Shown here: positions 6,005-49,647 of the stretch, in pieces
How the letters are laid out: every line of letters starts with the position of its first letter
Numbering within the stretch: position 1 is the stretch's first letter
Assembly (NCBI GenBank): GCA_964460545.1
Contig: CAYWUT010000003.1
Location: forward strand, 1,271-65,270
Direction: 5' to 3'
Source: an uncultured Spirochaetota bacterium
GTDB lineage: Bacteria; Spirochaetota; B62-G9; DRHN01
Length of the DNA: 64,000 nucleotides
The notes under the pieces: model-generated
What the model was told of the DNA's origin: nothing
Databases searched by the model: none
The model's input: only the letters and a program-made list of their open reading frames with translations
Position numbers and translations under genes: made by a program

Positions 6005-6073
6005 TAAAAAACCTCCGGAAGATTGTTACGGCTTCACACGTGCACGTATAATTAACGTCTTATGAAATATTTA

Positions 6074-6222: not shown

Positions 6223-6235
6223 AAATGGTTTTTAT

Positions 6236-12047: not shown

Positions 12048-12083
12048 CATCAAACGTACAGAGAGCGGAATAAGGAAAATGAC

Positions 12084-12111
12084 TTGTAAAAAATGTTATT
12101 TTTACTATAAT
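12084..12111 (+). promoter_or_regulatory. Candidate sigma-70 promoter for the second M23 peptidase gene
   Basis: TTGTAA-N16-TATAAT in the intergenic region upstream of 12296. Confidence 0.35.
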
Positions 12112-12295
12112 GGGCTATTGATCGTGTAAAAACTTCCATATATTCGGCGGATTACTGCGCACCAGGGATAAGATGAACAATTTCTACAGATCATTTCATA
12201 TCATACGTATTCGATGCAGGTCCCGGCTCACCCGTTTATTATTATCGTTAAAAGGCATTCGTTCCCACCCTGTCGGGCAAAGCAAAATCGCGGGT

Positions 12296-26656: not shown

Positions 26657-28192
26657 ATGAGTGCATCGATTGTAAAGCTGGATGGTAGAAACCTTTCGCT
26701 GGAGGACGTGGAGGCGGTAGCGGTACATGGCGTTAAAGCGGAATTGACGGAGGACGTAAAAGCGCGTATCACGGATTCAAGGCGGTGTATAGAGGGCACG
26801 ATGGGGAAAGGGAGGCCGATATACGGTGTCAACACCGGGTTCGGCGCGCTTTCGAACGTCATCATCGACGAGTCGCAGACCGAAGCGCTCCAGGCGAACC
26901 TCATCCGAAGCCATTGCGCCGGGGTCGGAGACCCGTTCGAGGAACGAGAGGTCAGGGCGATGCTACTCCTGCGGGCGAATACATTCGCCCTCGGAAACTC
27001 GGGAGTGCGGCTCGCGCTCGTCCGGCACCTGCTGGACTGTCTCAACAGTGGGATCCACCCGGTGGTCCCGCAGAAAGGCTCGGTCGGTGCATCCGGCGAT
27101 CTCGCACCCGCCGCACACCTCACCGCGGCTCTGCTCGGGGAGGGCGAAGCTTTTTTCAAGGGGAGACGTATAAAGGCGGCCGAAGCGCTGAAACAGGCCG
27201 GAATAAAGCCCGTGAGGCTGTCCGCCAAGGAGGGACTCGCGATGATCAACGGTACGCAGGCCATGACCGCGTCGGGCACGCTTTCTCTTATCCGTGCCCA
27301 GCGGCTAGCAAAGGTGGCGGACATCGCGGGAGCGGCCACGCTCGACGCGCTCAGGGGGACGCTCACCGCGTTCGACCCGGCCATCCAGGCGGCGAGGCCG
27401 CACCCCGGACAGATGGAAGTGTCGCGAAATTTTTTCCGCCTCATGAAAGGCAGCGAGATAACGGTATCGCACAAAGACTGCCCGAGGGTTCAGGACGCCT
27501 ATTCTCTGCGCTGCATCCCGCAGGTCCACGGAGCGGTACGTGACGTGTTTCGCTATGTACGGAACGTACTCGCGACGGAGGTCAATTCGGCGACCGACAA
27601 CCCGCTTGTGTTCCCGGAGAAGGACAGCGTGGAGTCAGGCGGTAACTTCCACGGCGAGCCCGTCGCGTTCGCACTCGATTTCCTGGGGATAGCAGCGAGC
27701 GAGCTCGGGTCTATCTCGGAACGGAGACTCGAAAAACTCCTGAACCCGGTATTCAGCCGGCTTCCGCCGTTTCTGACGGACAAGGGAGGGCTCCACTCCG
27801 GGCTCATGATGATACAGGTCTCGGCAGCGGCCCTCGCGTCGGAAAACAAGCTGCTCGCGTCGCCGTCGAGCGTGGATTCCATACCCACCTCGTCCGACAA
27901 GGAGGACCATGTAAGCATGGGGGCGACCTCTTCAAGAAAGGTGAAAGAGATCCTGTCGAACGTGACGAACATCCTCGCTATGGAGATTCTGGCTTCCACC
28001 CAGGGACTTTACTTCCTGAAACCGCTCGAACCGGGGGATGGCATTAAAAGACTTTACGAAATCGTCCGCGACCGTGTTCCGCCGATACTGGAGGACAGGT
28101 GCTTTCACAACGATATCGTTGAGATATACGATCTTATCGAGAGCGGGAAAATCCTCGAAGAAGTCGAGCGAGCGGTGGAAGCGCTCCGATAG
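26657..28192 (+). CDS. hutH: Histidine ammonia-lyase
   Basis: The MIO-forming ASG triad (GSVGASGDLAPAAHL) and the HAL N-terminus. The ATG at 26657 follows GGGGAGGAA, inside the listed 26576 ORF. Confidence 0.95.
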   Translation: MSASIVKLDGRNLSLEDVEAVAVHGVKAELTEDVKARITDSRRCIEGTMGKGRPIYGVNTGFGALSNVIIDESQTEALQANLIRSHCAGVGDPFEEREVRAMLLLRANTFALGNSGVRLALVRHLLDCLNSGIHPVVPQKGSVGASGDLAPAAHLTAALLGEGEAFFKGRRIKAAEALKQAGIKPVRLSAKEGLAMINGTQAMTASGTLSLIRAQRLAKVADIAGAATLDALRGTLTAFDPAIQAARPHPGQMEVSRNFFRLMKGSEITVSHKDCPRVQDAYSLRCIPQVHGAVRDVFRYVRNVLATEVNSATDNPLVFPEKDSVESGGNFHGEPVAFALDFLGIAASELGSISERRLEKLLNPVFSRLPPFLTDKGGLHSGLMMIQVSAAALASENKLLASPSSVDSIPTSSDKEDHVSMGATSSRKVKEILSNVTNILAMEILASTQGLYFLKPLEPGDGIKRLYEIVRDRVPPILEDRCFHNDIVEIYDLIESGKILEEVERAVEALR

Positions 28193-28231: not shown

Positions 28232-29887
28232 TTACCGGCCGGGCCGTGTGAAGACAGGACGGTCCACCGTCTTTTCAAACCTGTGCTCGAGGTCGGATTG
28301 CAGACGTGCGAGTGTCTTCCGGGTTTTTGCCAGTATGCGTTCCGCGTCCTGAAGTATATCATCCGTATACTCCCGGTCGGTGATCCCGCCGATGTTCAGG
28401 AGAATGTTGTAGAGCGCCCCGTTGACGGCGGTGCGCAGCAGATGTACGGCGACCGCCATCTCGGATACTGTGTTCGGATTCCCGATCCGGCAGGCCTGTT
28501 CCAGTTTCCCGCAGAGCGAGTCTGTGAGCTGCATCATGCGGTACGGCGTTTCGATCGCCTGCTTCGTCGCCTCTTCAATACCATCTTTCGCCCGCACGGC
28601 GGCCATCACCCTGTTGAAGGCCTCCGCATCCTCATCGATGAGCCGCAGGAACCGTTCCATGTGGCTCTTTGCAGTGGAGACGATCCCAGACGCTTCAGGT
28701 TCTACCTCGCTGTACTTCTTTTTTCCAGCGGTGAGCGACCCTACCATGGAGACGAGCGAGGCGGCGATAGCCCCGGCGGCTGCGGAGGCCGAACCGCCGC
28801 CCGGTGCCGGCGTATCGGACGCGAGTTCGCCGACGAATGCGTCGAACCCCATGCCGGCAAGAGTCGGTTTCCGGCCTGTCCTGTACTCGACGATCTTGGC
28901 AGTCGGATCGAACGGTCCGAGGTCATCGAGGCCGAGCGATTCAACCGCGGTATCTATCGCGCGTTTCTCCGGCGGAGACGATATACCCTGTGCGGAAAGG
29001 TAGTGCGCTCCGGATTCGACGATCGCCTCTTTCGGGACGAGCCCCACTATCTCGGAACCGGTGACGTCGGACCCTCTCTTTTTCGCCTCTACGCGTACCG
29101 CGTCGAAGACATGATGGAGGCCGGTTACACGGTAGTTAGTGAGGTTGATCGATACCTGTGCCCGTTTATAGTCGTCGACGTACCATCCGATCGCCTTGCA
29201 CTCGGGGAACATACCCGCTGTTTTTATTTTTCTCCCGTTCTTTTCTGTGACGGTGCCGCCCTTTGTACGGATTGTCTTCGCAATCGTATCCGCGAGGTCT
29301 TTGTCGCGGGAGTCGAGATTGACGTTATACGCAATGAGAAACTCTCTCGCGCCGATTACTGAAGCGCCGCTCTTTTTTACCCGGTCGTCGAACGACGCGG
29401 GTCCGAAATCGGGACGCCACGCGGCGTCCTGCAGCTTTCGTTCGAGCCCCTCATACTCGCCTGACCTGACGTACGAGAGCTCGGCGCGTTCCGGCGTGCT
29501 CGCCGCAGCGCCGTAGAGGTATACCGGGATACCGAGCTCCTCGCCTACCCGTTTTCCGAGCGCGCGGGCGATCTGCACGCAATCCTCCATGCTGGCATTT
29601 GCAACAGGTATGAACGGGCAGACGTCGCACGCCCCCATCCTCGGATGAGCACCCCGGTGGGTGGACATGTCGATGAAGGCCGTACCTGTCCGTATCGCCC
29701 GGAGAGAGGCCTCGAGCACCGCCTCCGGCGGCCCGACAAAGGTGAACACGGTCCTGTTTGTATCCATGCCCTGGTCGACGTCGAGCAGGGTGACGTTCGA
29801 CGTGGAACGAATCGCGTACGATATCATGTCGATTGTAAAGTTATCCCGGCCTTCGGAGAAGTTCGGGACGCATTCGATAATGCTCAT
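28232..29887 (-). CDS. ftcD: Bifunctional glutamate formiminotransferase / formimino-THF cyclodeaminase
   Basis: The formiminotransferase N-terminus (MSIIECVPNFSEGRD) plus a ~200-aa C-terminal cyclodeaminase-like helical domain. Total 551 aa. Confidence 0.85.
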   Translation of the reverse strand: MSIIECVPNFSEGRDNFTIDMISYAIRSTSNVTLLDVDQGMDTNRTVFTFVGPPEAVLEASLRAIRTGTAFIDMSTHRGAHPRMGACDVCPFIPVANASMEDCVQIARALGKRVGEELGIPVYLYGAAASTPERAELSYVRSGEYEGLERKLQDAAWRPDFGPASFDDRVKKSGASVIGAREFLIAYNVNLDSRDKDLADTIAKTIRTKGGTVTEKNGRKIKTAGMFPECKAIGWYVDDYKRAQVSINLTNYRVTGLHHVFDAVRVEAKKRGSDVTGSEIVGLVPKEAIVESGAHYLSAQGISSPPEKRAIDTAVESLGLDDLGPFDPTAKIVEYRTGRKPTLAGMGFDAFVGELASDTPAPGGGSASAAAGAIAASLVSMVGSLTAGKKKYSEVEPEASGIVSTAKSHMERFLRLIDEDAEAFNRVMAAVRAKDGIEEATKQAIETPYRMMQLTDSLCGKLEQACRIGNPNTVSEMAVAVHLLRTAVNGALYNILLNIGGITDREYTDDILQDAERILAKTRKTLARLQSDLEHRFEKTVDRPVFTRPGR

Positions 29888-30015: not shown

Positions 30016-30693
30016 TTAACGCCGTACCGTTATATCGCAGAAAACACTCGAACCGTCCACCTCGATGATTTCGAATTCGAGGCCGAGACTTTCGGCGAGT
30101 GAGGAAAACTCCTCCGGAGTCTGGGTGGTCACCTCGAACCCGTCCTCGCACACGATCACCCCGTTTTTCGTTTTTTCTTCGTCTATCCGGCCGAGGAGAT
30201 TCTCTTCCGCCTGCAGGTAGAACCATTCGAGACGCTCTTCCCAGAAATTATACGAGTAGCTCGAGAACAGCACACGGCCGCCGTTTCGAGTAACACGGAC
30301 GGCCTCGCGCATGAGCGTTTCCTTGTCTTCATGAAACGCGCATATGCCGTTCTGGATACAGATCACTGTGTCGAAGAGCCCGTCGGGAAAGGCGGGTTGA
30401 GAGGCGTTCATCTGTAACAGACGTGTGTTCCGGAATTCTTTCAGGAACTTCCGGCCGTACTCGATGTTCTGCGGCGCCGTGTCCACCCCGACGACGAATC
30501 CCGCCTTGCCGCACAGAGGCTTCATCGCCCTGCCGTACCCGCACCCGAGCTCCAGCACGAGGTCCTGTTCCGAGATTTTATCGACCACGTACGCGATTTC
30601 CTCTTGAAGATACCGTATGACGGCCGGAGTCGCGATCTCGTAGCAGCGTTCGAGCCTCTCGGCGGCCAGCTTCTTTGTGTAGTATCCTTGCAT
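30016..30693 (-). CDS. Class I SAM-dependent methyltransferase
   Basis: Motif I (VLELGCGYGR) and the following Rossmann elements. Confidence 0.75.
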   Translation of the reverse strand: MQGYYTKKLAAERLERCYEIATPAVIRYLQEEIAYVVDKISEQDLVLELGCGYGRAMKPLCGKAGFVVGVDTAPQNIEYGRKFLKEFRNTRLLQMNASQPAFPDGLFDTVICIQNGICAFHEDKETLMREAVRVTRNGGRVLFSSYSYNFWEERLEWFYLQAEENLLGRIDEEKTKNGVIVCEDGFEVTTQTPEEFSSLAESLGLEFEIIEVDGSSVFCDITVRR

Positions 30694-30990
30694 GGGCGTT
30701 CTCCCTCATTGTATCCTGGCTTCTTCAGGCGGTGTATACCCCCGCATCACGTTCCGTGACCGGTGCCGCGTCGCTTTTGCAGGATTGTGCATAATATATA
30801 AAAAATATAATAATATTTAACAGAATATTCTTTCATTTTAACAAAATCAGTATTATAAATACAAGATTACAAGGATTAATTGTGTTTTCCAATAAATTCA
30901 ATAAAAATAAGGAGACATGAAGCATCGTGAGAGGGAGGGCCGGAACGGACCTCATGCAGTACGAGTAAAAAATAAAAACGGAGGATATGT

Positions 30991-32481
30991 ATGAGTAAAT
31001 CGATCTTCATTATCGTTGCCGCCGTCTACTCGGTGATCATGCTGGCGATCGGCGTATATTTCTCGAGAAGGCAGAAATCGTCTCTTACCTATTTCCTCGG
31101 CGGACGGAACATCCCGGCGTGGATAATCGCCTTAACCTTCACGGCGTCATGGTTTGGCCCCACTGCGGCGGTGGTGGCGACTGGAAGGGCATTCCACGGA
31201 GGAATAAGCGCGATCTGGCTGATCGCCGGTCCCACGTGGATGGCGATCGCGATCATTACCGCGCTCTTCTCGAAAAAGATGAGAACGGTCTCGGCAAGCA
31301 GCAATATCTATACGCTGGCGGACGTGTTCCGGCTCCGGTATGGTAAGTTCTCGGCGTTTCTGATGTTTCTCTGCGTGCTTGGATACCTCTGGGGACTCAC
31401 GGCTGCCTGTTTTCTCGGTATGGCCAAGGCGCTGCACTCCCTGGTCGGTATGAACTTCATGCTGGGCCTCGTCATCGCCGCGGTTGTTGCGATCATCTAT
31501 ACGACTCTCGGCGGGTACGAGTCGGTGATCTTTACCGACGTCATCCAGGCGGTGCTGCTCGGTGCCGGTATGATCGCCTTCGCGGCCATATCGCTCAGCC
31601 GCGCCGGCGGGTGGGTGAACATCAAGGAGGTTGCCATTGCAAAGGAGGGGTACCTCAACGTGTTCCATGATTTCGGTAACTACCTCCCGATAATCATCGC
31701 TTTCGGCCTCGGGTGGGTCGCCTCGCAGGAGATTTTCCAGCGGTTCGCCTCGGCCAAGGATGAGAAGCACGCGGCACGCGGCGGCTGGTGGGCGCTGGTA
31801 ATCAACGTACCGCTGTTTATCGTACCGGTACTGGCAGGCATCGGCGCTGCGGTATGGCTTCCCGGACTCATCGAGAAGGCGGGAGTGGCGGTACCCGAGG
31901 CGGAAAAGATCACTTTCTGGGCCTCGACGAACGTGCTCGGGGGCTTCGGCGTATTCCTGTTCGTCGCGATACTCGCGGCCATCATGTCCTCCGCGGACAC
32001 GTTCATCAACGCCGCGGGAATGACTGTATCCAAGGACATATTTGGGCAGTACTTACACAAGGGGGGCGATATCCCGGAAAAACGAATGCTCACCATAAGC
32101 CGGCTCAGCACGCTGATAGTCTGCGTACTTGCGCTGTTAGTGTCGCTTGCGTTTACGTCGATACTCGATGCGCTCTTCCTCGGTGCCGACATACTCGTAT
32201 GCGGGATGCTCGTGCCGCTCATCGGCGCGTTCTGGTGGAAGCGCGCGACGAAGGTCGGAGCAACGCTCTCGACGCTCGTGGGATTCGCCTTCGTGATCAT
32301 CGACTTCATACTCCACAAGGCGGGAGTCAATGTCCCGTATCCCGGGTACCCGAAGTCGCTGTACGTGGGGTTCGCACTGAGTATCATTCTTTTCATCGTG
32401 GGGAGCCTGCTCAGCCAGCCCGAGGAGGAGTCAAAGATAGCGCCGTTTTTTCCCAATGCTTCAAAAGAGAAGGCGGCATGA
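30991..32481 (+). CDS. Sodium:solute symporter (SSS) family transporter
   Basis: A 496-aa product with 13 predicted TM helices and an N-terminal FLGGRN motif typical of SSS/PutP/PanF carriers. Confidence 0.85.
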   Translation: MSKSIFIIVAAVYSVIMLAIGVYFSRRQKSSLTYFLGGRNIPAWIIALTFTASWFGPTAAVVATGRAFHGGISAIWLIAGPTWMAIAIITALFSKKMRTVSASSNIYTLADVFRLRYGKFSAFLMFLCVLGYLWGLTAACFLGMAKALHSLVGMNFMLGLVIAAVVAIIYTTLGGYESVIFTDVIQAVLLGAGMIAFAAISLSRAGGWVNIKEVAIAKEGYLNVFHDFGNYLPIIIAFGLGWVASQEIFQRFASAKDEKHAARGGWWALVINVPLFIVPVLAGIGAAVWLPGLIEKAGVAVPEAEKITFWASTNVLGGFGVFLFVAILAAIMSSADTFINAAGMTVSKDIFGQYLHKGGDIPEKRMLTISRLSTLIVCVLALLVSLAFTSILDALFLGADILVCGMLVPLIGAFWWKRATKVGATLSTLVGFAFVIIDFILHKAGVNVPYPGYPKSLYVGFALSIILFIVGSLLSQPEEESKIAPFFPNASKEKAA

Positions 32482-32523
32482 GACTGTGTATTCAGATAGT
32501 CATGCCTGTTAAGGGTTGAATGT

Positions 32524-32913
32524 ATGGCGGAAAAAACACCTGATTTTATCGGTAATTACCCTGACCCTCCCGGCGAAAAGTCGGTGAGGGTCATACCGAA
32601 GGACAAGAGGATTCCCTTTGTTCACGGGGAGGCGCATAAGATACTCGTCGATTACATGGTCTCAACAGACCGGATGCATGGCGGTATTTTCGAGATAGGT
32701 CCTCACTCGCGAGGTGAGGAAACGCCGCCTCACAAGGGGGACGAGTTTTACTATGTGCTGCAGGGTGAAGGGCTGCTCTGCGTGGAGAACGAGAGGTACT
32801 ACCGGATTCGCGAGGAGGAGGCGGGATACCTTCCCGCAGGGTACATGCACTACTGGCTCAACCTCTCCGATACGACACTGAGAGTGCTTTTCGTAATTGC
32901 CCCGGACCTTTGA
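32524..32913 (+). CDS. Cupin-domain protein
   Basis: A 129-aa product with conserved cupin beta-strand motifs (GEAHKILVDYM...; EFYYVLQGEG). Confidence 0.65.
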   Translation: MAEKTPDFIGNYPDPPGEKSVRVIPKDKRIPFVHGEAHKILVDYMVSTDRMHGGIFEIGPHSRGEETPPHKGDEFYYVLQGEGLLCVENERYYRIREEEAGYLPAGYMHYWLNLSDTTLRVLFVIAPDL

Positions 32914-33240
32914 AGTACAGGTATCCTTTCGGGCCCCTGCACTTTTGCAGTAACCTCCTTTATTGTGTCTGGTATTGGCCTGAGAGGTGGAAGCGATTTT
33001 TCGTTTCCCCTCGCTTATTAAACGACCGCAATAAAGTGAAGCCGGCACGTCCGGTATGCCCGGTAGGCGCTTCTTCAGAAGGTATACCGGCAAAACCTGA
33101 GCTCTGGAAACATTTGCAGCCCAATAACGGGGAGACTGGATACGATACGCTCCGCAACAGAGAGACTAGTCGAATTTATTCTGAGTACCGGTTATGAAGA
33201 TATCCCGGGGCCTGTCGTTCGGACGGCGAAGTACGCGGTA

Positions 33241-34527
33241 ATGGATATAATCGGCCAGGCATGCGCGGCCACCGGTACGGCGGCGGGTCGGATGCTCCTC
33301 GGCTGTATACCCGATACCGGAAAGGCGCCATGCAGTATCTTCGGAACCGGGCGGCGCGCATCGCTCATGGAGGCCTGCTGGTTGAATGCCTCCCTCGCCC
33401 AGGTCCTCGATTACGACGATACCTACGAGATCGCCTCACTTGGTGTTTCCCATCCCGGACCTGCGGTCGTTCCCTCGGCGCTTGCGGTATGCGAAAGCGA
33501 GGGGTGTGATGGAAAAGCGCTCATCCGTGCGGTCGTTCTCGGGTATGAAGCGGCATGCAGGACGGCTGATGCGATAGAACCGAGAGAGTACGAGTTCTGG
33601 GGATTCGCAAATACGCAGATCATGGGCGCGGTCACCGCGTCCTCCATACTGCTCGGAGTCGACGTCGACCGTTTCGTGAACGCAATCGGCATCGCGGCAT
33701 CCTCTTCTCCGGTACCGAATACGAACATGATGTGGTCTCTGACTAAGAGGCCCATGTCGTGGGTGAAGGACGCGGTGGGGTGTGCGGCCTCCTCCGGCGT
33801 CATGAGCGCGCTCATGGCGAGCCGGGGATTTATCGGAACACGCAACGGGCTCGATGAGCAGGACGGCTACTACCTGCTGTGCGGAAGCAGGGCCTATGAC
33901 GAAAAAAAACTCGTCGAAGCACTGGGAAAACGGTACAGGCTGTCGAACCTCAGCTTCAAGCCGTATCCCACCTGCAGGTTCATGCAGTCAACCCTCGATT
34001 CGGTATCGATCCTCATGGAGAAACACGGCCTCGGTGAGGAACAGATAGAGGAGGTCGTGGTGTTCGTGACACCGTTCCTCGCGGAAGCATTCAGTGTATA
34101 CGAGCCCGCTTCCATGATCGACGCGCAGTTTTCCATGCCGTATGCGATCTCCAGGATAATCTGTAGGGACGACCCCTCGCCCGCATGGTACGGCGAGGGA
34201 TGCATGAACGACCCGCAGACGCGGGCCGCGATGAAGAAGGTCAGGCTCGTGCCCGACGAGGAGGTGGAGCGAAAGCGGGCGGAACAAAGCATACTGAGCC
34301 CTAAAGTCCGTATCAGGACGAAGAACGGCGATGAGTTCGAGAGGCAGGAGTACTGTGCAAAAGGCCATCCGGACAAGCCGTTTGCACCGGAGGACTTCAC
34401 CGGGAAATTCACCCGCTGTCTCGAAGCTGTAGAAATGGGCGACCGGGCAGGTCGCGCAATAACGATGATAGAAAATCTCGAGGAATACGGGGACATACGG
34501 GAGCTCCTCGCTCTTTTCATTCCATAA
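33241..34527 (+). CDS. MmgE/PrpD family protein (paralog 1); the N-terminus probably extends upstream with a non-ATG start
   Basis: PrpD-family N-terminal helix and downstream regions. The same frame continues upstream without stops to 33067 and encodes the conserved start of the family (TERLVEFILSTGYEDIP). Confidence 0.8.
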   Translation: MDIIGQACAATGTAAGRMLLGCIPDTGKAPCSIFGTGRRASLMEACWLNASLAQVLDYDDTYEIASLGVSHPGPAVVPSALAVCESEGCDGKALIRAVVLGYEAACRTADAIEPREYEFWGFANTQIMGAVTASSILLGVDVDRFVNAIGIAASSSPVPNTNMMWSLTKRPMSWVKDAVGCAASSGVMSALMASRGFIGTRNGLDEQDGYYLLCGSRAYDEKKLVEALGKRYRLSNLSFKPYPTCRFMQSTLDSVSILMEKHGLGEEQIEEVVVFVTPFLAEAFSVYEPASMIDAQFSMPYAISRIICRDDPSPAWYGEGCMNDPQTRAAMKKVRLVPDEEVERKRAEQSILSPKVRIRTKNGDEFERQEYCAKGHPDKPFAPEDFTGKFTRCLEAVEMGDRAGRAITMIENLEEYGDIRELLALFIP

Positions 34528-34550
34528 TACATCACAGGGGGAGAGGGTAC

Positions 34551-35945
34551 ATGACGAACATTACGAAACGGTATGTGAAGCAGGTAATCGATATGAAGAT
34601 CGAAGACCTTGGCGACAAGGTCATATCGGAGACGAGACGTGCGCTGCTCGACACGCTCGGGTGCATGGTCGCGGGGGTGAGGTCTCCTATAGGAATGAGT
34701 GCGCTGCAGTCCCTGGGGGAATCAGGCGGAGCGCAGGAGGCCACCGTGATCGGCGATGGAAGAAGGATGTCCGCGCCGATAGCCGCCTACATCAACGGGC
34801 AGTGCTGCGTGGGTCCGGACCTGAGCGACAATTACAAAAAGGAAAGCATCATCATATCACACCCCGGCGAAGGGGTCATACCGCCGGTGCTCGCTCTTGC
34901 GGAAAAGACCGACGCCACGGTGGAGGATCTCATTCTCGCCACCGTCGCCGGCTACGAGACCGCCGGACGGTACGCGCACGCCATAGAGCCGAGGAGGCCC
35001 GAAGTCTACAGCTTCTCCACGCATTACGGCGTGGCGGGCGGTATTGCGTGCGCCAAGCTTCTCGGGCTCGGCGAGGATGAGTCGGCGAACCTTCTCGGCA
35101 TCGCGGGAACGCTTTCGCCGCTTCCCGTAACCATGCCGATGTGGGGCTTCCGCGAGAACGATCGGCCGGCGTCGTGGCACAGGGACATGCCGGGTCACGC
35201 GGGATTCGCGTCGGTGACGGCCGCGCTCTTTTCCGGCACGGACTTCAGGGCGACGAACAGCCTGCTGGACGAGCATATCGAATTCTACAAGATCGCGGGA
35301 TCGGACAACTACAATCCCGAGCTTCTCTTCGAGGGCTGGGGTGAACATTTCGTGGTCGAGAAGCTGTCCTACAAATCGATACCGAGCTGCTACTTCAACC
35401 AGCCCTGTATCGAGGCGGTCCGGCTGTGCTTCGAGGAGAACGGTATATCGCTCGATGATGCAGAAAAGATCGACCTGTACGCGCCCACGCAGCTCGCAAA
35501 GAACTTCAAGTATTACCCGCCGCGTACGCCCGTGGATACCGCGTCGAGTGTCAGGTACCTTACCGCGATGTACCTGCTCACCGGAAAGCCCGGGACCGAC
35601 TGGTATCTCGAGTACGAGCGTTACCTCAAAAAAGAGGAGTATAAAAAGATCGCCGGCATGATAGACGTGTACGAGGACGAGGAACTGCAGAAGATACTTC
35701 AGGAGGAAGAGGTCATTTTCGGAAAGGCGGTGGTGAAAGCCGGGGGGAAAACGTACGAAAAGCGGGTCGATGCGGTACGCGGCGCGGACAAGAACCCCTT
35801 CACCGTAAAAGAGATCGAGGACAAGTTCCTTACGCTCTCAGGTCCGGTAATCGGAGAAGACAGGGCAAAGGCGGCCCTCCGCGCCGTGCGCGATTCCGAC
35901 CTCAAAAGCGGGGTGCGGGAAATCGTATCACTGCTCTGCCCGTAA
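34551..35945 (+). CDS. MmgE/PrpD family protein (paralog 2)
   Basis: A 464-aa product whose N-terminus (MTNITKRYVKQVIDMKIEDLGDKVISETRRALLDTLGC) aligns residue-for-residue with paralog 1. Confidence 0.85.
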   Translation: MTNITKRYVKQVIDMKIEDLGDKVISETRRALLDTLGCMVAGVRSPIGMSALQSLGESGGAQEATVIGDGRRMSAPIAAYINGQCCVGPDLSDNYKKESIIISHPGEGVIPPVLALAEKTDATVEDLILATVAGYETAGRYAHAIEPRRPEVYSFSTHYGVAGGIACAKLLGLGEDESANLLGIAGTLSPLPVTMPMWGFRENDRPASWHRDMPGHAGFASVTAALFSGTDFRATNSLLDEHIEFYKIAGSDNYNPELLFEGWGEHFVVEKLSYKSIPSCYFNQPCIEAVRLCFEENGISLDDAEKIDLYAPTQLAKNFKYYPPRTPVDTASSVRYLTAMYLLTGKPGTDWYLEYERYLKKEEYKKIAGMIDVYEDEELQKILQEEEVIFGKAVVKAGGKTYEKRVDAVRGADKNPFTVKEIEDKFLTLSGPVIGEDRAKAALRAVRDSDLKSGVREIVSLLCP

Positions 35946-35959
35946 GGGGTGCGTGAGTT

Positions 35960-36973
35960 ATGAACTCCTACGAACGTTTCAGGTGCGTAATGGAAGGTAC
36001 GCTCCCGGACAGAGTCCCGTGCATACCGATGATACGTGAATGGGCCGTGGTGCAGGAAGGGTACGGACTCTTCGATGTGATGGACGATCCGGAGCGGTAC
36101 ACGGCCTGCCAGCATGAATGCTCCAATACCGTCGGGTACGATTCCGTGTCCGATCTCAACGCGATAAACGCCGAAGCCGAGGCCATGGGCTGCGTGCTGA
36201 AAGAGGGAGACATCAGCGTCAGGACCCCGGCGATAGAGGACTACGGCTCGGATCTCGATAGGATAGTGGGTGTGGACCCCTCGAAAGACGGAAGGCTGCC
36301 GGTCATTCTAGAGGGGGTTAGGATTCTGCGGCGTCGCTGCTGGAAAGAGAAGGTGATCTTCTGTTATGTACAGGCGCCTTTCAGGGCGGCGGCCATGCTC
36401 AGGGGAGTGGAGCGGTTTCTCAAGGACTGCCTGAAGACCCCGGAATCCGTCAGGGACCTGCTCGTGAAGGTGACCGAGAACCAGATACGCTTCGGGACTG
36501 CGCTTGCGGAAGCCGGGGCCGACCTGATCGAGGTTTCGGATCCCATGTCGTCAGGCGATATCGTGACGCGCAAACAGTACGAAAAACTGGGATTTTCATT
36601 TTCGAAGCGGCTGATAGCAAGCCTGAAAAAAACGGGTGTCCGTATCGTACACCACGCGTGCGGCGATACCACCGACCGTCTCGACATGTTCGATGCACTC
36701 GGCGCAGACATGCTGAGCCTGGACCAGGTGGTGGACCTGGGCGAGGCCAGAAGCATCCTGGGAGAACGGAGCGTTCTTTTCGGAAATATCGACCCATTGC
36801 TCCTCAGGGAAGGCACCCCTTCCGAGGTCGGGGACGCCGCGCGTCGCTGTATCGAAAAGGGTGGAAAAAACGGCGCGTTTGTCCTGAGCTCGGGCTGCCT
36901 GATCGCGGCGGACACTCCGCTTATGAACATGCAGGCCATGGTTGATGCGGCCTGTGAGCATCGCTACGGATGA
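35960..36973 (+). CDS. Uroporphyrinogen-decarboxylase (URO-D) family protein, HemE/MtaA-like
   Basis: A 337-aa product with the URO-D fold pattern (DRVPCIPM...; C-terminal GG.NGAFVLSSGC). Confidence 0.75.
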   Translation: MNSYERFRCVMEGTLPDRVPCIPMIREWAVVQEGYGLFDVMDDPERYTACQHECSNTVGYDSVSDLNAINAEAEAMGCVLKEGDISVRTPAIEDYGSDLDRIVGVDPSKDGRLPVILEGVRILRRRCWKEKVIFCYVQAPFRAAAMLRGVERFLKDCLKTPESVRDLLVKVTENQIRFGTALAEAGADLIEVSDPMSSGDIVTRKQYEKLGFSFSKRLIASLKKTGVRIVHHACGDTTDRLDMFDALGADMLSLDQVVDLGEARSILGERSVLFGNIDPLLLREGTPSEVGDAARRCIEKGGKNGAFVLSSGCLIAADTPLMNMQAMVDAACEHRYG

Positions 36974-37133: not shown

Positions 37134-39173
37134 ATGAAAACCTATGAGGGAAAAGTTTCGGACGCAATGACGATCAAAATCGACGACGAGCTCCCGGATA
37201 TGCCCGGTTTCGTGCCGGGGATACGCAGGGCCCCTGACCGGGGGTTCAGGCTGAACCGCGGGCAGACGGAGACAGCGCTTATGAATGCGCTGCGGTACGT
37301 TCCGGAACAACACCATGAAACGCTCGCGCCCGAGTTCCTGGAGGAGCTCATGACGAGGGGGAGGATATACGGGTACCGTTTCCGTCCCGAGGGGCATATA
37401 AAGGGCCAGTCGATCGACCGGTACGAAGGCAGGAGCATGACGGGCAAGGCGTTTCAGGTCATGATAGACAACAACCTTGATTTCGATGTAGCGCTCTACC
37501 CATACGAACTCGTTACCTACGGAGAAACGGGAAGCGTGTGCCAGAACTGGATGCAGTACAGGCTGATCAAGAAATATCTCTCCCGGCTCACCGACCGGCA
37601 GACGCTCGTCGTGGAGTCCGGGCACCCGCTCGGATTGTTCAGGTCACAGCCGACGAGCCCCAGGGTGGTCGTCACGAACGCCCTCATGGTCGGCATGTTC
37701 GACAACGAGAATGACTGGGAGATCGCGGAGGAGATGGGGGTCGCGAACTACGGGCAGATGACCGCCGGCGGCTGGATGTATATCGGTCCCCAGGGAATCG
37801 TTCACGGCACCTACAGCACCCTGCTCAACGCCGGAAGACTGAAACTGGGTATGAACAAGGATGAAAACCTCTCCGGTAAACTTTTCGTATCCTCGGGACT
37901 CGGGGGAATGAGCGGCGCGCAGGCGAAAGCGGTAGAGATTGCGGGCGGTGTCGGCGTCATCGCGGAAGTCGACGCGTCGAGGATCGAAACCAGGAAGAAG
38001 CAGGGGTGGGTAAGTGAAGTTTCGTCCGATCTCGACGAGGTTTTCGGAATCGCGGCAAAGGCACAGTCGGCGGGCACGCCGGTTTCCGTCGCCTATCACG
38101 GAAACATCGTGGACCTTCTTGAGCACGTGAATAAAAAGAACGTACACGTGGATCTCCTCTCGGATCAGACGTCATGTCACGCGGTGTATAACGGCGGATA
38201 CTGTCCGCAGGGCGTGACGTTCGACGAGAGGACGAAGATGCTCGAATCGAACCGTGAAGCGTTCGGAAATCTGGTCGACAAGAGCCTGAAACGGCATTAC
38301 GAGGCGATCAAATCCCTCGTTGATCGCGGCGCCTATTTCTTCGATTATGGAAACTCGTTCATGAAGGCGGTGTTCGATGCAGGCGTGAAGGAGATATCGA
38401 AGAACGGGAAAGACGTGAAAGATGGATTCATATTCCCTTCATACGTTGAGGATATGATGGGTCCGATGCTGTTCGATTACGGCTACGGCCCGTTCCGTTG
38501 GGTCTGCCTCAGCGGAAAGGACGACGACCTCGCAAAGACGGACAGGGCGGCGATGGAATGCATAGATCCCGACCGGCGGTACCAGGACAGGGATAACTGG
38601 GTGTGGATACGGGACGCGCAGAAACACAATCTCGTCGTGGGTACCAGGGCGAGGATCCTCTACCAGGATGCGGAGGGGAGGGTTAAGATCGCGCTCAGGT
38701 TCAACGAGATGGTGAGAAACGGTGAGGTCGGCCCGATAATGCTCGGCAGGGACCATCACGACGCGGGCGGCACGGACTCTCCCTTCAGGGAAACGGCGAA
38801 TATCAAGGACGGAAGCAACGTGATGGCCGATATGGCGACACAGTGTTTCGCGGGCAACGCGGGAAGGGGGATGTCGATGATTTCCCTCCACAACGGCGGT
38901 GGCGTAGGCGTCGGGAAGGCCATCAACGGCGGCTTCGGACTGGCCCTCGACGGGAAACCGGCTACGGACGAGATTATCCGCAACGCGATGAGATGGGATG
39001 TCATGGGCGGGGTCGCGCGCCGTGCCTGGGCGAGAAACGATGCGTCGATCGCGACCTGCAGCGAGTACAACACCGAAAACACAGATACGGACCATATTAC
39101 GCTGCCCTATGTGGCGGACGAATCCCTCGTCGACGCCGTGGTGAAAGAAGCGTTTGAACGGAGCGGACGGTGA
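37134..39173 (+). CDS. hutU: Urocanate hydratase (long form)
   Basis: The ATG at 37134 follows AGGAGG. Urocanase core motifs (QTETALMN...YGETGSVCQNW...GGWMYIGPQGIVHGTY...) in a ~679-aa form. Confidence 0.95.
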   Translation: MKTYEGKVSDAMTIKIDDELPDMPGFVPGIRRAPDRGFRLNRGQTETALMNALRYVPEQHHETLAPEFLEELMTRGRIYGYRFRPEGHIKGQSIDRYEGRSMTGKAFQVMIDNNLDFDVALYPYELVTYGETGSVCQNWMQYRLIKKYLSRLTDRQTLVVESGHPLGLFRSQPTSPRVVVTNALMVGMFDNENDWEIAEEMGVANYGQMTAGGWMYIGPQGIVHGTYSTLLNAGRLKLGMNKDENLSGKLFVSSGLGGMSGAQAKAVEIAGGVGVIAEVDASRIETRKKQGWVSEVSSDLDEVFGIAAKAQSAGTPVSVAYHGNIVDLLEHVNKKNVHVDLLSDQTSCHAVYNGGYCPQGVTFDERTKMLESNREAFGNLVDKSLKRHYEAIKSLVDRGAYFFDYGNSFMKAVFDAGVKEISKNGKDVKDGFIFPSYVEDMMGPMLFDYGYGPFRWVCLSGKDDDLAKTDRAAMECIDPDRRYQDRDNWVWIRDAQKHNLVVGTRARILYQDAEGRVKIALRFNEMVRNGEVGPIMLGRDHHDAGGTDSPFRETANIKDGSNVMADMATQCFAGNAGRGMSMISLHNGGGVGVGKAINGGFGLALDGKPATDEIIRNAMRWDVMGGVARRAWARNDASIATCSEYNTENTDTDHITLPYVADESLVDAVVKEAFERSGR

Positions 39174-40429
39174 AGCGTACAGGCCTTCTGATCGAAAATA
39201 TCGGCGAACTCGTTACATGCAGCGGAACGGACGCGAAGCGGGGTGCGGCGATGTCGGATCTCGGCGTTATACGAGACGGCGCGGTTCTGGTCGAGGACGG
39301 AACCATACGGGCGGTCGGTAAAACAGGCGGGATAAAGAATAACGGGTTTCCGGTACTCGACGCCGCCGGAAGGGCCGTCCTGCCGGGGTTCGTGGACGCG
39401 CACACCCATTTTCTGTTCGGCGGGTACCGCGAGGAGGAGTTCGCCTGGAGGCTTGCCGGTGAAAGCTACCTCGATATGCTGAAAAAGGGCGGCGGTATCC
39501 TGAGTACCGTCAGGACGACGAGAACCTTCTCGAAAATTCGGCTGGAAGAGGAGGGGCGCGGGCGTCTCGACAGCATGCTGTCGTTCGGGGTGACGACGGT
39601 GGAGGGAAAAAGCGGGTACGGGCTCGATCACGACACTGAGATCAGGCAGCTCGAGGTGATGAAGAACCTGGACGAGATTCACCCGGTCGATGTCGTTCCC
39701 ACCTATCTCGGGGCCCATGCGGTGCCGGAAGAATACAAGGGAAAAAGCGACGAATACCTGGATTTCATACTCGAAAAGGTCCTTCCGGAAGTCTCGGAAA
39801 AGAAACTTGCTCGGTTCTGCGATGTATTCTGCGAGAAGGGCGTATTTTCGCGCCTTCAGAGCGAACGGCTTCTTCGCGGGGCGAAGGAGCTCGGGATGGG
39901 GATCAAGGTCCACGCCGACGAGATACACGATACCGGAGGGGCTGCCCTTGCGGCGCAGTTGCAGGCGGTATCAGCGGATCACCTTCTGCATGCATCGGAC
40001 AGCGGGCTGGATGAGATGGCGCGTGCGGGAACCGTCGCGGTGCTGCTTCCATGTACCGCGTTTTGCCTCGGAGAGCCCTATGCACGGGCGCGGGAAATGA
40101 TAGACCGCGGTATCGGGGTCGCGATGGCCACGGATATGAATCCCGGAAGCTGTTTTTCAGAATCCATCCCTCTCCTGTTCGCGCTCGCGACGATACAGAT
40201 GAAGATGTCGGCGGAAGAAGCGGTGACCGCCTGTACGATAAACGGCGCAGCGGCGCTTGACCTTGCGGAGCGAATCGGGAGTATCGATGTGGGGAAACGG
40301 GCGGATATGGTCGTGCTGCAGTATCCGTCATACCGGTTTCTGCCCTATCATACCGGTGTCAGCTGTGTGGAAAAGGTCATCAAGAGCGGTAAAACGGTAT
40401 ACGACCGTTCACAGGCGCTCGTGTATTGA
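39170..40429 (+). CDS. hutI: Imidazolonepropionase
   Basis: A GTG start overlapping the hutU stop. Amidohydrolase metal motif (PGFVDAHTHF) and the HutI body. Confidence 0.95.
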   Translation: MKRTGLLIENIGELVTCSGTDAKRGAAMSDLGVIRDGAVLVEDGTIRAVGKTGGIKNNGFPVLDAAGRAVLPGFVDAHTHFLFGGYREEEFAWRLAGESYLDMLKKGGGILSTVRTTRTFSKIRLEEEGRGRLDSMLSFGVTTVEGKSGYGLDHDTEIRQLEVMKNLDEIHPVDVVPTYLGAHAVPEEYKGKSDEYLDFILEKVLPEVSEKKLARFCDVFCEKGVFSRLQSERLLRGAKELGMGIKVHADEIHDTGGAALAAQLQAVSADHLLHASDSGLDEMARAGTVAVLLPCTAFCLGEPYARAREMIDRGIGVAMATDMNPGSCFSESIPLLFALATIQMKMSAEEAVTACTINGAAALDLAERIGSIDVGKRADMVVLQYPSYRFLPYHTGVSCVEKVIKSGKTVYDRSQALVY

Positions 40430-41399: not shown

Positions 41400-41976
41400 T
41401 GTTTAACCTCCCGATCATGAATGAAATCTAATTACGATGCTCAGTTGAAACCGTAAAGAGTCCTGTTCAGGACCGGTACTTTCAATGACTTCGCAGGTCT
41501 ACGATAAGCTGTTACGTGAACGTCATCAGGAGTCTCCCGAGACGCCGCCGGTAACGAAACATGGTGACCGCTACCAATATACATGATTTTCCCCTCATTT
41601 TCCAATCCGGGATTGTGGAATGGATCTGGTGAAATTTATTACAATGGACGATATAAACGGGGCGAACTGGGAAACCTACGGTGAATTCGGTATCGTTGTG
41701 GGGCAGTTCCGGTTTTATTAAAATAACGGGTCACGTCGGGTTATTTTTTCAGCTCGATTTTTTACGGATTAATTACATGGTTTTCTCAAAATCTCTATAA
41801 TGGCATTTCACCAAGTTCCGGAATGGAAAGTGAGCAGCTGGGAGTGCGGTGACACTCCCAGCAATCCAAATGGAGGGAAATGAATTGCAGTTAAACTGCT
41901 GCTCCACTCAATTATGCAGATAATTTTAATCTTGTAAAGTAGAAAAACGCTCATTTTGAACTGTCCGTGTGCATAT

Positions 41977-42160
41977 ATGAGTGGAAAGAGCGGGTTGCCG
42001 CAGAAGATAATCGACCTGATCCCGGAGCACAAGACCTCTGTGAGTTGCACTTGCATTTTTATCAGGTAATGATCGAAAATTTTCCCTGAGAGGACTGCCT
42101 GTCACAATACGACAAACCGGAAACCTTATTCTACCTCGACCCTCCCTTTTACATAAAATA
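41977..42160 (+). pseudogene. Decayed D12-class (Dam-like) N6-adenine DNA methyltransferase
   Basis: Fragment 1 reads MSGKSGLPQKIIDLIPEHKT...*, matching the GGK..LLP.I..LIP N-terminal motif. Fragment 2, in another frame, reads YDKPETLFYLDPPFYIK*, carrying motif IV (DPPY/F). The fragments are interrupted by stops and frame changes inside a ~40% GC tract. Confidence 0.4.
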
Positions 42161-42428
42161 AACCCTGCTCTTTTCAAGGGTGACCGAAGATCATACCGCC
42201 CTGAGAGCGGTACCGCGTACTGCACGAGTAACCTACTCGACAGTATTACTTCCGTTGAGGCACGTGTAGCAAGAAAAAAATAATTTATAAAACACTTTTA
42301 AAGATGACGGCTGAACAACTTCGCAAGAGCACCTTAGAATATTTGTATTTGCCATTGAAACCGGATTTACATTAGTAAATGATTTATATATATTCTAATT
42401 AAAATTATTATAGATCTAAGCGATATCA

Positions 42429-43166
42429 GTGCGGAGTAATACAATGCTCGGGAATATGAACTTTCTTCACATGATACCAGATTATTTAATAATCAGGTTA
42501 CTCTTTGCCAGTGTATTGGGTGCATTAATAGGAATTGAACGAGATTTTCATGGAAGATCAGCAGGTCTGAGAACCAATCTCCTTGTTAGTTTAGGTGCCG
42601 CAGTATTCATGATTGTTTCTGAAATGATCCCAACTTCGTATTTATCAGGTTATGATAGCAATTCAATACTTCGATCCGATCCTAGTAGGATAGCAGCAAA
42701 TATCATAACAGGAATAGGCTTTTTAGGTGCTGGAGTGATTATTAAATCAGGTTTTTCAGTTAAGGGCATGACAACAGCAGCTTGTTTATGGCTATCAGCA
42801 GGTATAGGAATAAGTGCCGGAGCCGGATTCTATGAAATTGCACTCATTACTACAATAATTGGACTGATAAGTCTGATCCTTCTAAATCCTTTAGAGAAAG
42901 TATATGCGAAGGATTCCTACAGATCACTCCAGATCGTAACGTCAAACGATACAGATTTAGGGCGAATAATTTCAATTATTAAACGTGAAGGGCTGAAAAT
43001 ATTATACCTGGATAAAGAAAGAAATTATGAGACGGATAAAATGAAAATAATTTTTACTCTACGATTGCACTATAAAGGAGCTACAGATAAATTATCACAC
43101 GTTATAGTACAGGATATAGAAAGGTCGGGTATTGATGTTTATAAGATTAGATGGTTCCATCAATAG
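42429..43166 (+). CDS. mgtC: MgtC/SapB family membrane protein
   Basis: MgtC N-terminal signature (RLLFASVLGALIGIERDFHGRSAGLRTN). The gene is markedly AT-rich compared with its flanks. Confidence 0.85.
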   Translation: MRSNTMLGNMNFLHMIPDYLIIRLLFASVLGALIGIERDFHGRSAGLRTNLLVSLGAAVFMIVSEMIPTSYLSGYDSNSILRSDPSRIAANIITGIGFLGAGVIIKSGFSVKGMTTAACLWLSAGIGISAGAGFYEIALITTIIGLISLILLNPLEKVYAKDSYRSLQIVTSNDTDLGRIISIIKREGLKILYLDKERNYETDKMKIIFTLRLHYKGATDKLSHVIVQDIERSGIDVYKIRWFHQ

Positions 43167-43503
43167 CACATGATTTTCAACTGTTTCTTATTAATGATAA
43201 TTTCCTAATACGCACATTTTTTCTTCACATTTGTTCCTCATAAATATTCTTCACAAATGTTTTTTGATTTAACAGACCACCTACCCGTATCCTTGTAGTA
43301 ATCCATGCCGCACAAACTGCACAAGCCCTGTTCTTTCGATGATTTCCGGATATCCGACATCGGACAATGTGACGCTGGGATCGAATACCACGTCAGTGAA
43401 GCCGCCGCATGCCCGGCATGAAATACCTGTAGACCTCAGCTTCTTTTTAAACTAGATTCCTGTTGTACCAGGCGTTCCATTCTCCACCAACACGGGAGAG
43501 GTT

Positions 43504-47039: not shown

Positions 47040-47060
47040 CATTTATTCGAGGGAATTTAT

Positions 47061-49502: not shown

Positions 49503-49647
49503 TCACCTGCTTCGTTCCATCCATACAACTAAACGATAATCGTCATCGCTTCCGGTCTTGAAAAGGCAGATACGCGCGCGTTCCGGTCTGAAGAGCTGAC
49601 AGACGTTTCTTCACGATTCAGCGCGGCTATCGAAGAAACGGTCCCGT

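Follow-up and report, generated by a model that had tools for sequence, protein, structure and literature searches.

A 64,000-nucleotide stretch of a contig from an uncultured Spirochaetota bacterium (CAYWUT010000003.1; hereafter the window) carries a histidine utilization (hut) locus in which two tandem MmgE/PrpD-family genes, called PrpD1 and PrpD2 here, lie among the genes of histidine degradation. All four hut steps (hutH, hutU, hutI, and ftcD) are encoded in the window, each above its NCBIfam equivalog cut-off. Between hutH–ftcD and hutU–hutI stand genes for a class I S-adenosylmethionine (SAM)-dependent methyltransferase, a sodium:solute symporter (SSS), a cupin, the PrpD pair, and a URO-D-family protein (Table 1). 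A preliminary description of this DNA had proposed these six open reading frames and their families, as well as their position inside the hut locus, and Pfam and NCBIfam matches far above chance bear out both. The locus is a hut cluster to which a conserved and undescribed branch has been added. We examined what this branch consists of, how far it is conserved, and which reaction it may carry out.

Anatomy of the window locus

The hutH gene is given in its 511-residue form, which sister contigs also carry; a further open ATG lies upstream, at 26576. In addition to its equivalog score, HutH bears the 4-methylideneimidazole-5-one (MIO) motif GASGDL at residues 144–149. On the other side of the block, HutU is a long-form urocanate hydratase whose closest solved relative is the enzyme of Trypanosoma cruzi (6uek, 573 bits). 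The claim that hutU follows the block with essentially no spacing is wrong, as a gap of 160 nt separates it from the URO-D gene. The view of the block as an insertion was not borne out either. Its G+C content (0.567) is like that of the hut flanks (0.58–0.60), and spirochaete species with identities as low as 64% retain the whole arrangement, so that recent horizontal insertion is unsupported.

The SSS transporter is not an ortholog of PutP (143 bits against a cut-off of 515). In every case, its orthologs at 62–84% identity are followed by the cupin and PrpD1, and the cupin keeps this place between the transporter and PrpD1 across the loci that carry it. The candidate metal ligands of the cupin, in the motifs PPH, GDE, and HYW, are kept in seven orthologs. 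The SAM methyltransferase shares 61–63% identity with copies in distant spirochaete loci (L016/L022; such numbers denote individual loci throughout) and has counterparts by Pfam match in L042 and L044. None of the NCBIfam models reached its cut-off for this protein, the top ones being ArsM-like (48 bits) and CpaM (33 bits). A promoter consensus scan of the window gave no signal above chance.

The start of PrpD1 deserves comment. The frame is open from 33067 without an ATG, GTG, or TTG, and a start at the first ATG would drop about 32 conserved N-terminal residues. An ATA at 33145 lies 9 nt behind GGGGAGA, a good Shine–Dalgarno sequence, and corresponds in alignments to the ATG with which homologs begin, and the sequence of the start region is identical in five independent metagenome contigs. 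This ATA is most likely the start codon, judging from the alignment.

The spacer between the cupin gene and PrpD1 is 231 nt long and has a fold z of −2.8. It contains a three-hairpin element that is conserved in the window and in its spirochaete relatives L042, L044, and L019, with a consensus fold of 23 pairs, two of them with compensatory changes. The intergenic spacers gave no Rfam match at the gathering threshold or at E values up to 1. A terminator consensus scan stayed at chance level and failed to pick up the conserved hairpin, whose tail has too few U residues. The element might terminate SSS–cupin transcription, or it might act on PrpD1 through hutI as an attenuator or riboswitch-like leader. 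The entire block may plausibly be transcribed together with hutU; because of the hairpin element, a single uninterrupted transcript is not a given.

Table 1. Coordinates of the hut locus features in the window and of the in-frame TGA codon in Synergistales PrpD2 genes (bit scores with cut-offs in brackets)
Feature	Coordinates	Strand	Evidence or remark
hutH, histidine ammonia-lyase, 511-aa form	26657..28192	+	TIGR01225 691 bits (539)
ftcD, glutamate formimidoyltransferase fused to cyclodeaminase	28232..29887	−	FTCD_N, FTCD, FTCD_C; TIGR02024 373 bits (221)
Class I SAM-dependent methyltransferase	30016..30693	−	upstream of ftcD; Methyltransf_25 E 5e-17, Methyltransf_11 match
Divergent intergenic region	30694..30990		AT-rich, G+C 0.38; presumed promoters for methyltransferase–ftcD (−) and for the genes from SSS onward (+)
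Sodium:solute symporter (SSS)	30991..32481	+	Pfam SSF E 7e-38
Cupin, 129 aa, single-domain	32524..32913	+	Cupin_2 E 1e-11
Three-hairpin intergenic element	32944..33025	+	last stem G+C-rich (32982–33013), then U-rich tail
PrpD1 (MmgE/PrpD paralog 1)	likely 33145..34527	+	first ATG 33241; MmgE_PrpD_N 2e-41, MmgE_PrpD_C 1e-26
PrpD2 (MmgE/PrpD paralog 2)	34551..35945	+	MmgE_PrpD_N 1e-40, MmgE_PrpD_C 4e-22; Cys280 codon 35388–35390
URO-D-family protein	35960..36973	+	Pfam URO-D 3e-65; probable MtaA/CmuA methyltransferase type
hutU, long-form urocanate hydratase, 679 aa	37134..39173	+	TIGR01228 445 bits (375)
hutI, imidazolonepropionase	39170..40429	+	TIGR01224 464 bits (298); 4-nt overlap with hutU
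TGA in PrpD2, L009	10832
TGA in PrpD2, L030	5197
TGA in PrpD2, L017/L033	10832
TGA in PrpD2, L028	6065
TGA in PrpD2, L035	10832

The PrpD pair and the Cys/Sec position of PrpD2

Both paralogs match PF03972 and PF19305 above the gathering cut-off of 32.1 bits (142 and 94 bits for PrpD1, 140 and 79 bits for PrpD2). They are anciently diverged, being 28.5% identical to each other, yet conserved at 40–81% among their own orthologs, which argues that both are under selection. Each has its own set of invariant motifs. PrpD1 shows the canonical LDYDDT...SHPG motif and FKPYPTC, with SFKPYPTCRFMQS among the motifs specific to its family, whereas PrpD2 shows GPDLSDNY, RPASWHRDMPGH, and KSIPSCYFNQ. The pattern K-x-x-P-x-C, followed by Gln at +4, is kept in both.

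The nearest solved relatives of the pair are Bacillus subtilis IRG1, iminodisuccinate (IDS) epimerase, and cis-aconitate decarboxylase (CAD), with profile E values of 1e-27 to 1e-18 and 17–21% identity. An AlphaFold2 model of PrpD2 (predicted local distance difference test, pLDDT, 82.5; predicted template modeling score, pTM, 0.86) was compared with known structures by Foldseek, which gave template modeling (TM) scores of 0.81 for IDS epimerase and 0.78–0.79 for CAD (E 4e-22), at a probability of 1.00. The IDS epimerase of Agrobacterium (PDB 2HP0/2HP3; profile E 8e-27) shares the two-domain fold and an Asp...His-Pro motif with PrpD2, and its K-S-W-P-S-C-Y corresponds to K-S-I-P-S-C-Y in PrpD2. 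It differs in overall identity (about 20%) and in having His at Cys+4, where both window paralogs have an invariant Gln. In addition, IDS epimerase is a homodimer acting on a tetracarboxylate, with no selenocysteine (Sec) variant reported, whereas here two paired paralogs occur in an imidazole-catabolic context.

CAD (IRG1/ACOD1; PDB 6R6U and 6R6T, and 7BRA for B. subtilis IRG1) has the same fold, and the equivalents of its Asp93, His103, and Lys272 are kept in PrpD2 as D90, H104, and K275, invariant in 20 orthologs. Alanine mutants of eight CAD residues, including His277, lose most or all activity (PMC6789909). This set of eight is not preserved in PrpD2, in which Lys207 is replaced by Arg205, His277 by Cys280, and Thr97 by Asn94, so that identity as a cis-aconitate decarboxylase was rejected. 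The identity to CAD is also only 18–21%, and no itaconate or aconitate genes occur in the PrpD-pair context. The 2-methylcitrate dehydratases PrpD and MmgE (PDB 1SZQ, 5MUX, and 6S62) belong to the same superfamily and offer a precedent for the elimination of water from a hydroxy acid. Their TM scores against the PrpD2 model are only 0.66–0.75, and orthology was rejected because the 2-methylcitrate and itaconate models stay far short of their cut-offs (43 and 31 bits against 950 for NF042438, 20 bits against 575 for NF006943) and the partner genes are missing from the context. Neither prpB, prpC, nor acnD turned up in the window or in those related loci that we examined. Close orthology to enzymes of 2-methylcitrate or itaconate metabolism, which the preliminary description had named as refuting its idea, is therefore not seen. 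By domains, fold, and core residues, the pair belongs to the MmgE/PrpD superfamily while failing the tests for each activity characterized there.

By motif, K275-S-I-P-S-C280 of PrpD2 places Cys280 at His277 of CAD (K-S-F-P-A-H277). At least five distinct PrpD2 sequences from Synergistales have an in-frame TGA exactly in this column (...PS-U-YF... against ...PS-C-YF...; Table 1), and the conserved C-terminal domain continues in frame past it. In all such loci the gene is called as two pieces of 277 and 178 residues, and NCBI lists the Sec form as a truncated "MmgE/PrpD family protein", with entries on 91 and 55 contigs for two cluster members. All Sec forms have a hairpin at +24 to +40 after the TGA (6-bp stem, CGUGC loop, one compensatory change from A-U to G-C); in the Cys forms of PrpD2, no consistent hairpin occurs at the same site. 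The resemblance of this hairpin to a selenocysteine insertion sequence (SECIS) was judged by comparing Sec and Cys forms. The L009 contig also has a grdA gene with a Sec codon (CFV-TGA-TAAGAMD), which points to the use of Sec by that organism. Together, the in-frame UGA and the SECIS-like hairpin suggest that the Synergistales PrpD2 is a bacterial selenoprotein, and the exchange probably marks Cys280/Sec as a catalytic residue. The equivalent Cys of PrpD1 is retained in all lineages. Our literature search, which covered 8 million papers and preprints, found no report of a Sec-containing MmgE/PrpD member. The Sec/Cys switch thus singles out one residue for mutation and assay, and it exposes a selenoprotein that is split in public annotation.

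The only segments of the PrpD2 model with pLDDT below 50 are residues 91–103 and 196–212 (window 34821–34859 and 35136–35186). They hold the two most invariant motifs of the protein, LSDNY... and PMWGFR..RPASWHRD. Such low confidence would be consistent with loops whose ordering depends on heteromer assembly or on bound substrate.

Distribution of the pair and its gene neighborhood

We scanned 185,579 species-representative genomes for the locus, together with metagenomes, and compared protein clusters among 5.8 billion proteins. PrpD2 has 38 related clusters, after which identity falls to 25%. PrpD1 has about 35 ortholog clusters in the same lineages, followed by a drop from at least 41% to at most 34% identity. 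The species genomes contain seven loci, all in metagenome-assembled genomes (two Spirochaetota, two Desulfobacterales, one Clostridia, and two Synergistales), and the metagenome scan added 21 further PrpD-pair loci.

PrpD1 lies directly upstream of PrpD2, in the same orientation, in every locus with enough sequence. The gap between them is 23 nt in the window; in L042 and L044 the two reading frames share 4 nt. From this constant adjacency and these overlaps we infer that PrpD1 and PrpD2 may form a heteromer; solved members of the MmgE/PrpD family are dimers (PMC6789909).

A transporter stands beside the pair in every lineage, although its family varies. It is the SSS type, with the cupin, in spirochaetes and Clostridia, an SBP_bac_3 ATP-binding cassette (ABC) system in Desulfobacterales, and a tripartite ATP-independent periplasmic (TRAP) DctPQM system in Synergistales. 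GntR/FCD regulators accompany the pair in the latter two groups. A long hutU is found within 10 kb of the pair in eight of nine lineages, often with hutI, ftcD, and the gene for formate–tetrahydrofolate ligase (FTHFS), and the window hutU is 67–76% identical to those beside PrpD pairs in other phyla. Where hutU stands differs from locus to locus, and the transporter is a closer associate of the pair than hutU is. Genes for the cupin and URO-D accompany the SSS transporter in spirochaetes and Clostridia only, and the SAM methyltransferase is restricted to spirochaetes. Among the loci examined, hutH also lies within the cluster in spirochaetes only.

The individual arrangements illustrate this variation. 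In spirochaetes (the window, L042, L044, and L016/L022), hutH is followed by ftcD and the methyltransferase on the opposite strand and then by SSS, cupin, PrpD1, PrpD2, URO-D, hutU, and hutI. In Clostridia (L040), a short hutU on the opposite strand precedes a long run of long hutU, SSS, cupin, PrpD1, PrpD2, URO-D, a corrinoid protein, a second URO-D, EamA, D-2-hydroxyacid dehydrogenase, the large and small subunits of AcnX, LarA, ftcD, hutI, and FTHFS. L045 is arranged like L040, with a fragmented URO-D gene. In L025 the order is hutI, cyclodeaminase, SSS, cupin, PrpD1, PrpD2, URO-D, corrinoid protein, URO-D, and RACo. Desulfobacterales have GntR(FCD), the ABC system, PrpD1, PrpD2, and hutU, sometimes followed by ftcD and hutI. 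In one of them, L007, the order is GntR–PrpD1–PrpD2–hutU–ftcD–hutI, and the pair stands where hutH normally does. L041 has the regulator, the ABC system, and the pair, with no hutU within 10 kb. In Synergistales, GntR(FCD), PrpD1, PrpD2, and an optional FTHFS precede the TRAP system, hutU, and AcnX. No hutI is nearby in L008, L009, or L033.

The conserved core therefore consists of the PrpD pair and a transporter; among enzymes, their most constant companion is the long hutU. The preliminary description had treated all six genes as one unit and had named synteny with hut genes in other genomes as a test of its idea. Such synteny is present in four phyla; what recurs is the PrpD pair with a transporter and usually the long hutU, whereas the full six-gene set is confined to spirochaetes. 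Since the family occurs in only 7 of 185,579 species, chance co-location with hutU in four phyla is implausible. The sister PrpD clades P0039 and P0220 (25–31% identity) have TctABC/TctC, ornithine-cyclodeaminase, or isocitrate-dehydrogenase-like contexts, with no hut genes.

Two further features of these clusters were observed. L040 contains two back-to-back urocanases (2602–6476), a short canonical form of 553 aa (751 bits with TIGR01228) and a long form of 675 aa (443 bits) that heads the PrpD operon; the long form may have a specialized role or separate regulation in this locus. Two-subunit aconitase X (AcnX) is found in Synergistales and Clostridia clusters that hold PrpD and hutU genes, at L009 16830–18454, at L033 15347–17055 with a second copy from 20930, and at L040 16031–17649. 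Its top named relative is cis-3-hydroxy-L-proline dehydratase, far below cut-off. In the L040 operon, AcnX is accompanied by the D-2-hydroxyacid dehydrogenase and a LarA-type 2-hydroxyacid racemase most like malate racemases (296 bits).

The URO-D protein may add a second activity to part of these clusters. The best-matching families of the window protein are PRK06252 (191 bits, cut-off 244) and TIGR01463, mtaA_cmuA (180 bits, cut-off 235), both below cut-off. Aligned to MtaA (4ay7), its segments vhHaCGd and sSGCli show the zinc triad His-x-Cys...Cys at the HHACGD and SSGC positions, which we take to provide the zinc ligands of MtaA, and the triad is kept in seven URO-D orthologs and paralogs. 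In L040, L025, and L027, an MtbC/MtgC-like corrinoid protein and a second URO-D lie next to the ortholog, and in L016 a corrinoid protein and a second URO-D lie upstream of hutH. Because RACo follows URO-D, corrinoid protein, and URO-D in L025, a four-component methyltransferase system is complete in that hut cluster. The earlier choice between a decarboxylase and a corrinoid methyltransferase can thus be narrowed. A HemE-type decarboxylase was rejected on its score (76 bits against 303 for TIGR01464), the conserved triad, and the corrinoid partners of orthologs; the window URO-D is predicted to be a corrinoid-dependent, zinc-type methyltransferase. The absence of a nearby corrinoid protein noted earlier extends over the entire 64 kb, in which we found no corrinoid protein, RACo, MttB, or prp genes.

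Through its MtaA-like zinc site, the window URO-D resembles the known corrinoid methyltransferase systems of anaerobes, which combine methyltransferase I, a corrinoid protein, methyltransferase II, and an activase (MtaA, PDB 4AY7; the MtsA/MtpA thiol systems; O-demethylases). The embedding of such a system in a hut locus was not found described in the literature, nor was corrinoid-dependent demethylation in a hut context. In L025 (9230–11846), the RACo-type activase is followed by a small protein with a weak match to the MetH activation domain.

Possible roles of the PrpD pair

We lean, tentatively, toward a role of the PrpD pair and its transporter as a feeder module: an imported imidazole carboxylate, distinct from L-histidine itself and sometimes methylated, would be turned into urocanate without the need for HutH. 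The dedicated transporter would bring in a histidine-related compound of this kind. PrpD1 and PrpD2, acting as a hetero-oligomeric, cofactor-independent enzyme of the MmgE/PrpD type, would convert it to trans-urocanate by elimination or isomerization. The chemistry would consist of proton addition or removal at a carbon adjacent to a carboxylate, with an active-site Cys, or Sec in Synergistales. IDS epimerase and CAD work through carbon protonation and deprotonation, IDS epimerase without a cofactor (PMC6789909). HutU, HutI, and FtcD, together with FTHFS in some lineages, would then take urocanate to glutamate and one-carbon (C1) tetrahydrofolate. Wherever the substrate occurs in methylated form, its methyl group may be removed by the MtaA-like zinc URO-D, in concert with RACo, a corrinoid protein, and a further URO-D, and this group would join the same C1-tetrahydrofolate pool as the formimino group. 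This step is suggested by the corrinoid partners of the MtaA-like URO-D in three other lineages. These partners are encoded within the cluster in Clostridia and some spirochaetes and are presumably encoded elsewhere in the window's genome.

A feeder module appears to be the most economical reading because the pair is tied to a transporter and regulator, hutU–hutI–ftcD are next to it, and hutH is in the cluster only in spirochaetes. It also fits the closer bond of the pair to the transporter than to hutU, as in L041, which lacks hutU. The proposal in the preliminary description that a histidine-related carboxylic acid is taken up and converted remains the best reading in outline, with substrate and reaction both conjectural. 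In relation to the canonical pathway (HutH–HutU–HutI–FtcD/HutG), the module would be embedded in the hut cluster and would share its C1-tetrahydrofolate output. Outside spirochaetes, the clusters differ from the canonical arrangement in holding the PrpD pair and a transporter, with no hutH seen. No hut operon with PrpD-family genes was found described in the literature, and the search yielded no link of the PrpD family to urocanate, in keeping with the earlier view that the gene combination is undescribed. It likewise gave nothing relevant on cis-urocanate isomerase, anaerobic thiourocanate metabolism, methylcitrate dehydratase with urocanate hydratase, or methylhistidine with corrinoid.

Imidazole-lactate is the leading single guess for the substrate, although improbable when taken alone. 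It agrees with the presence of FCD regulators, of TRAP and SSS transporters, and, in L040, of LarA and the 2-hydroxyacid dehydrogenase; FCD-type regulators are consistent with a hydroxy- or carboxy-acid substrate. Three other possibilities are each a long shot: cis-urocanate, which would suit a nucleophilic Cys/Sec; beta-substituted imidazole-propionates, such as thiol adducts of urocanate; and (S-methyl)thiourocanate or N-methyl-imidazole acids. Ergothioneine and thiourocanate catabolism provides a precedent for the passage of modified imidazole acids through HutH/HutU-like enzymes, and a zinc-thiolate methyltransferase together with a Sec/Cys nucleophile would suit thio- and S-methylthio-imidazoles. 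Other enzymes of the known pathway are absent: no ergothionase or desulfhydrase occurs in the window. The MIO motif rules out HutH as an ergothionase, and HutU was rejected as a thiourocanate or S-methylthiourocanate hydratase (NF058530 and NF058531, 304 and 344 bits against 930 and 880).

A broader version of this proposal can be formulated. The pair would be a new Cys/Sec-dependent, cofactor-free enzyme that makes urocanate from a non-histidine imidazole, giving a HutH-independent entry into the hut pathway that is coupled to corrinoid demethylation of an imidazole compound in some lineages. To our knowledge, no URO-D-type methyltransferase uses a methyl donor of this kind. The Synergistales form would then represent a selenoprotein family not recognized before, and it would be the first enzyme with the MmgE/PrpD fold to use Sec. 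Methylated or thiolated derivatives of histidine would be candidate substrates, as would imidazole-lactate and the thiol adducts that urocanate forms in sulfidic habitats. Taken as a whole, this version is possible yet doubtful.

Several points weigh against a urocanate-forming feeder. The direct dehydration of imidazole-lactate is chemically hard, as its beta-proton is unactivated, and we know of no PrpD-family enzyme acting on a monocarboxylate or an imidazole compound. The habitats of cis-urocanate (UV-exposed skin) are unlike sediments and digesters. The window has only one URO-D and no corrinoid protein. No step in the scheme falls to the cupin, to AcnX, or to the SAM methyltransferase, and none of the alternatives discussed below accounts for these three either. 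A terminator-like hairpin parts SSS–cupin from PrpD1, and the transporter may simply import urocanate or histidine. Finally, the two most conserved motifs of PrpD2 lie at pLDDT below 50, which makes any modeled active-site geometry tentative.

The main rival to the feeder module places the pair after urocanase, as a racemase or tautomerase of 4-imidazolone-5-propionate or an epimerase of an N-substituted glutamate such as formiminoglutamate. The labile product of HutU would be put into a form that HutI can use, and the clusters would amount to ordinary operons for urocanate or histidine use, to which a helper enzyme is optionally added. The closest relative by profile and fold, IDS epimerase, epimerizes an N-substituted alpha-carbon and shares the KSWPSCY/KSIPSCY correspondence described above. 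Cofactor-free racemases, hydantoin racemase among them, typically use thiol bases. Such a helper needs no exotic substrate, has hutU as its most constant enzymatic neighbor, and accounts for the pair being kept in a spirochaete locus that contains hutH. However, the pair is tied more to transporters and regulators, hutU is missing near it in L041, and hutI is missing in L008, L009, and L033. Most hut operons manage without a helper, given the rarity of the family, and the methyltransferase/corrinoid set, the cupin, and AcnX are left unexplained. We regard this role as unlikely, while ranking it first among the alternatives.

It is also conceivable that the pair acts on an ordinary di- or tricarboxylic or hydroxy acid of the citramalate, mesaconate, aconitate, or malate type, either glutamate-derived or imported. 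The hut link would then be merely a shared regulon or a shared C1 and glutamate economy. All characterized family members use polycarboxylates, and TRAP and FCD-GntR systems are typical of organic-acid operons. The AcnX, malate-racemase-like LarA, and D-2-hydroxyacid dehydrogenase of L040 point the same way, as do the TctABC transporters and isocitrate-dehydrogenase-like genes of the sister clades. Conversely, the minimal operons L008 and L009 consist of transporter, PrpD1, PrpD2, and hutU, with no genes for glutamate fermentation or for an organic-acid CoA-transferase or lyase. The ortholog group is sharply set apart from its sister clades by the drop in identity noted above, and residues that bind polycarboxylates in CAD (Lys207, His277, and Thr97) are changed to Arg, Cys, and Asn. 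We consider an ordinary organic acid a quite improbable substrate.

We consider it very improbable that the pair is an MIO-independent substitute for histidine ammonia-lyase, acting on L- or D-histidine or an N-alpha-substituted histidine and releasing urocanate with ammonia or an amine. The lack of hutH in clusters outside spirochaetes, although hutU, hutI, and ftcD are present, would be explained in this way, and the transporter of Desulfobacterales belongs to the HisJ-like SBP_bac_3 class. Against such a lyase, a genuine MIO-containing hutH is retained beside the pair in spirochaetes, TRAP systems and FCD regulators suggest non-amino carboxylates, and we know of no chemical precedent for abstraction of the histidine beta-proton without MIO. 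It is hardly credible that the adjacency is a chance neighborhood or a decaying remnant, as the absence of a canonical start where PrpD1 homologs begin (the ATA read as pseudogenization) and the fragmented URO-D gene of L045 could suggest, since synteny spans four phyla for a very rare family, the PrpD1 frame is intact and identical in five independent assemblies, and both paralog families are strongly conserved.

Histidine catabolism is regarded as a fully mapped pathway; a very rare, conserved enzyme pair with a transporter of its own is nonetheless part of its gene clusters in uncultured anaerobes of four phyla. Should the feeder module be correct, formation of urocanate from another imidazole would be a new MmgE/PrpD reaction in a superfamily with few characterized activities, and it would open up a nutrient niche in digesters and sediments that had not been recognized. 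The corrinoid methyltransferase set within these clusters would connect imidazole catabolism to C1-tetrahydrofolate, which bears on acetogenic and syntrophic carbon flow.

The remainder of the 64-kb window is housekeeping (glnA, amt, pyruvate kinase, ksgA, coaX, fba, ychF, and bipA). A nitrogen-assimilation cluster on the minus strand (2887–7789) encodes glutamine synthetase, an ammonium transporter, and a GAF/sigma-54 activator, and it lies upstream of a beta-eliminating lyase (8020–9063). Tandem paralogous genes of 379 and 380 aa at 10908–13315 encode LysM and M23 peptidase domains. Downstream of fba, the G+C content falls to 0.38–0.41 at 41400–43500, against a window mean of 0.54; this segment includes an MgtC-family gene (42429–43166) and may be foreign or a long regulatory region. 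Large open reading frames with little or no Pfam signal occupy 44916–51504, namely one of 707 aa with Big_5 and others of 813, 403, and 209 aa without a match.

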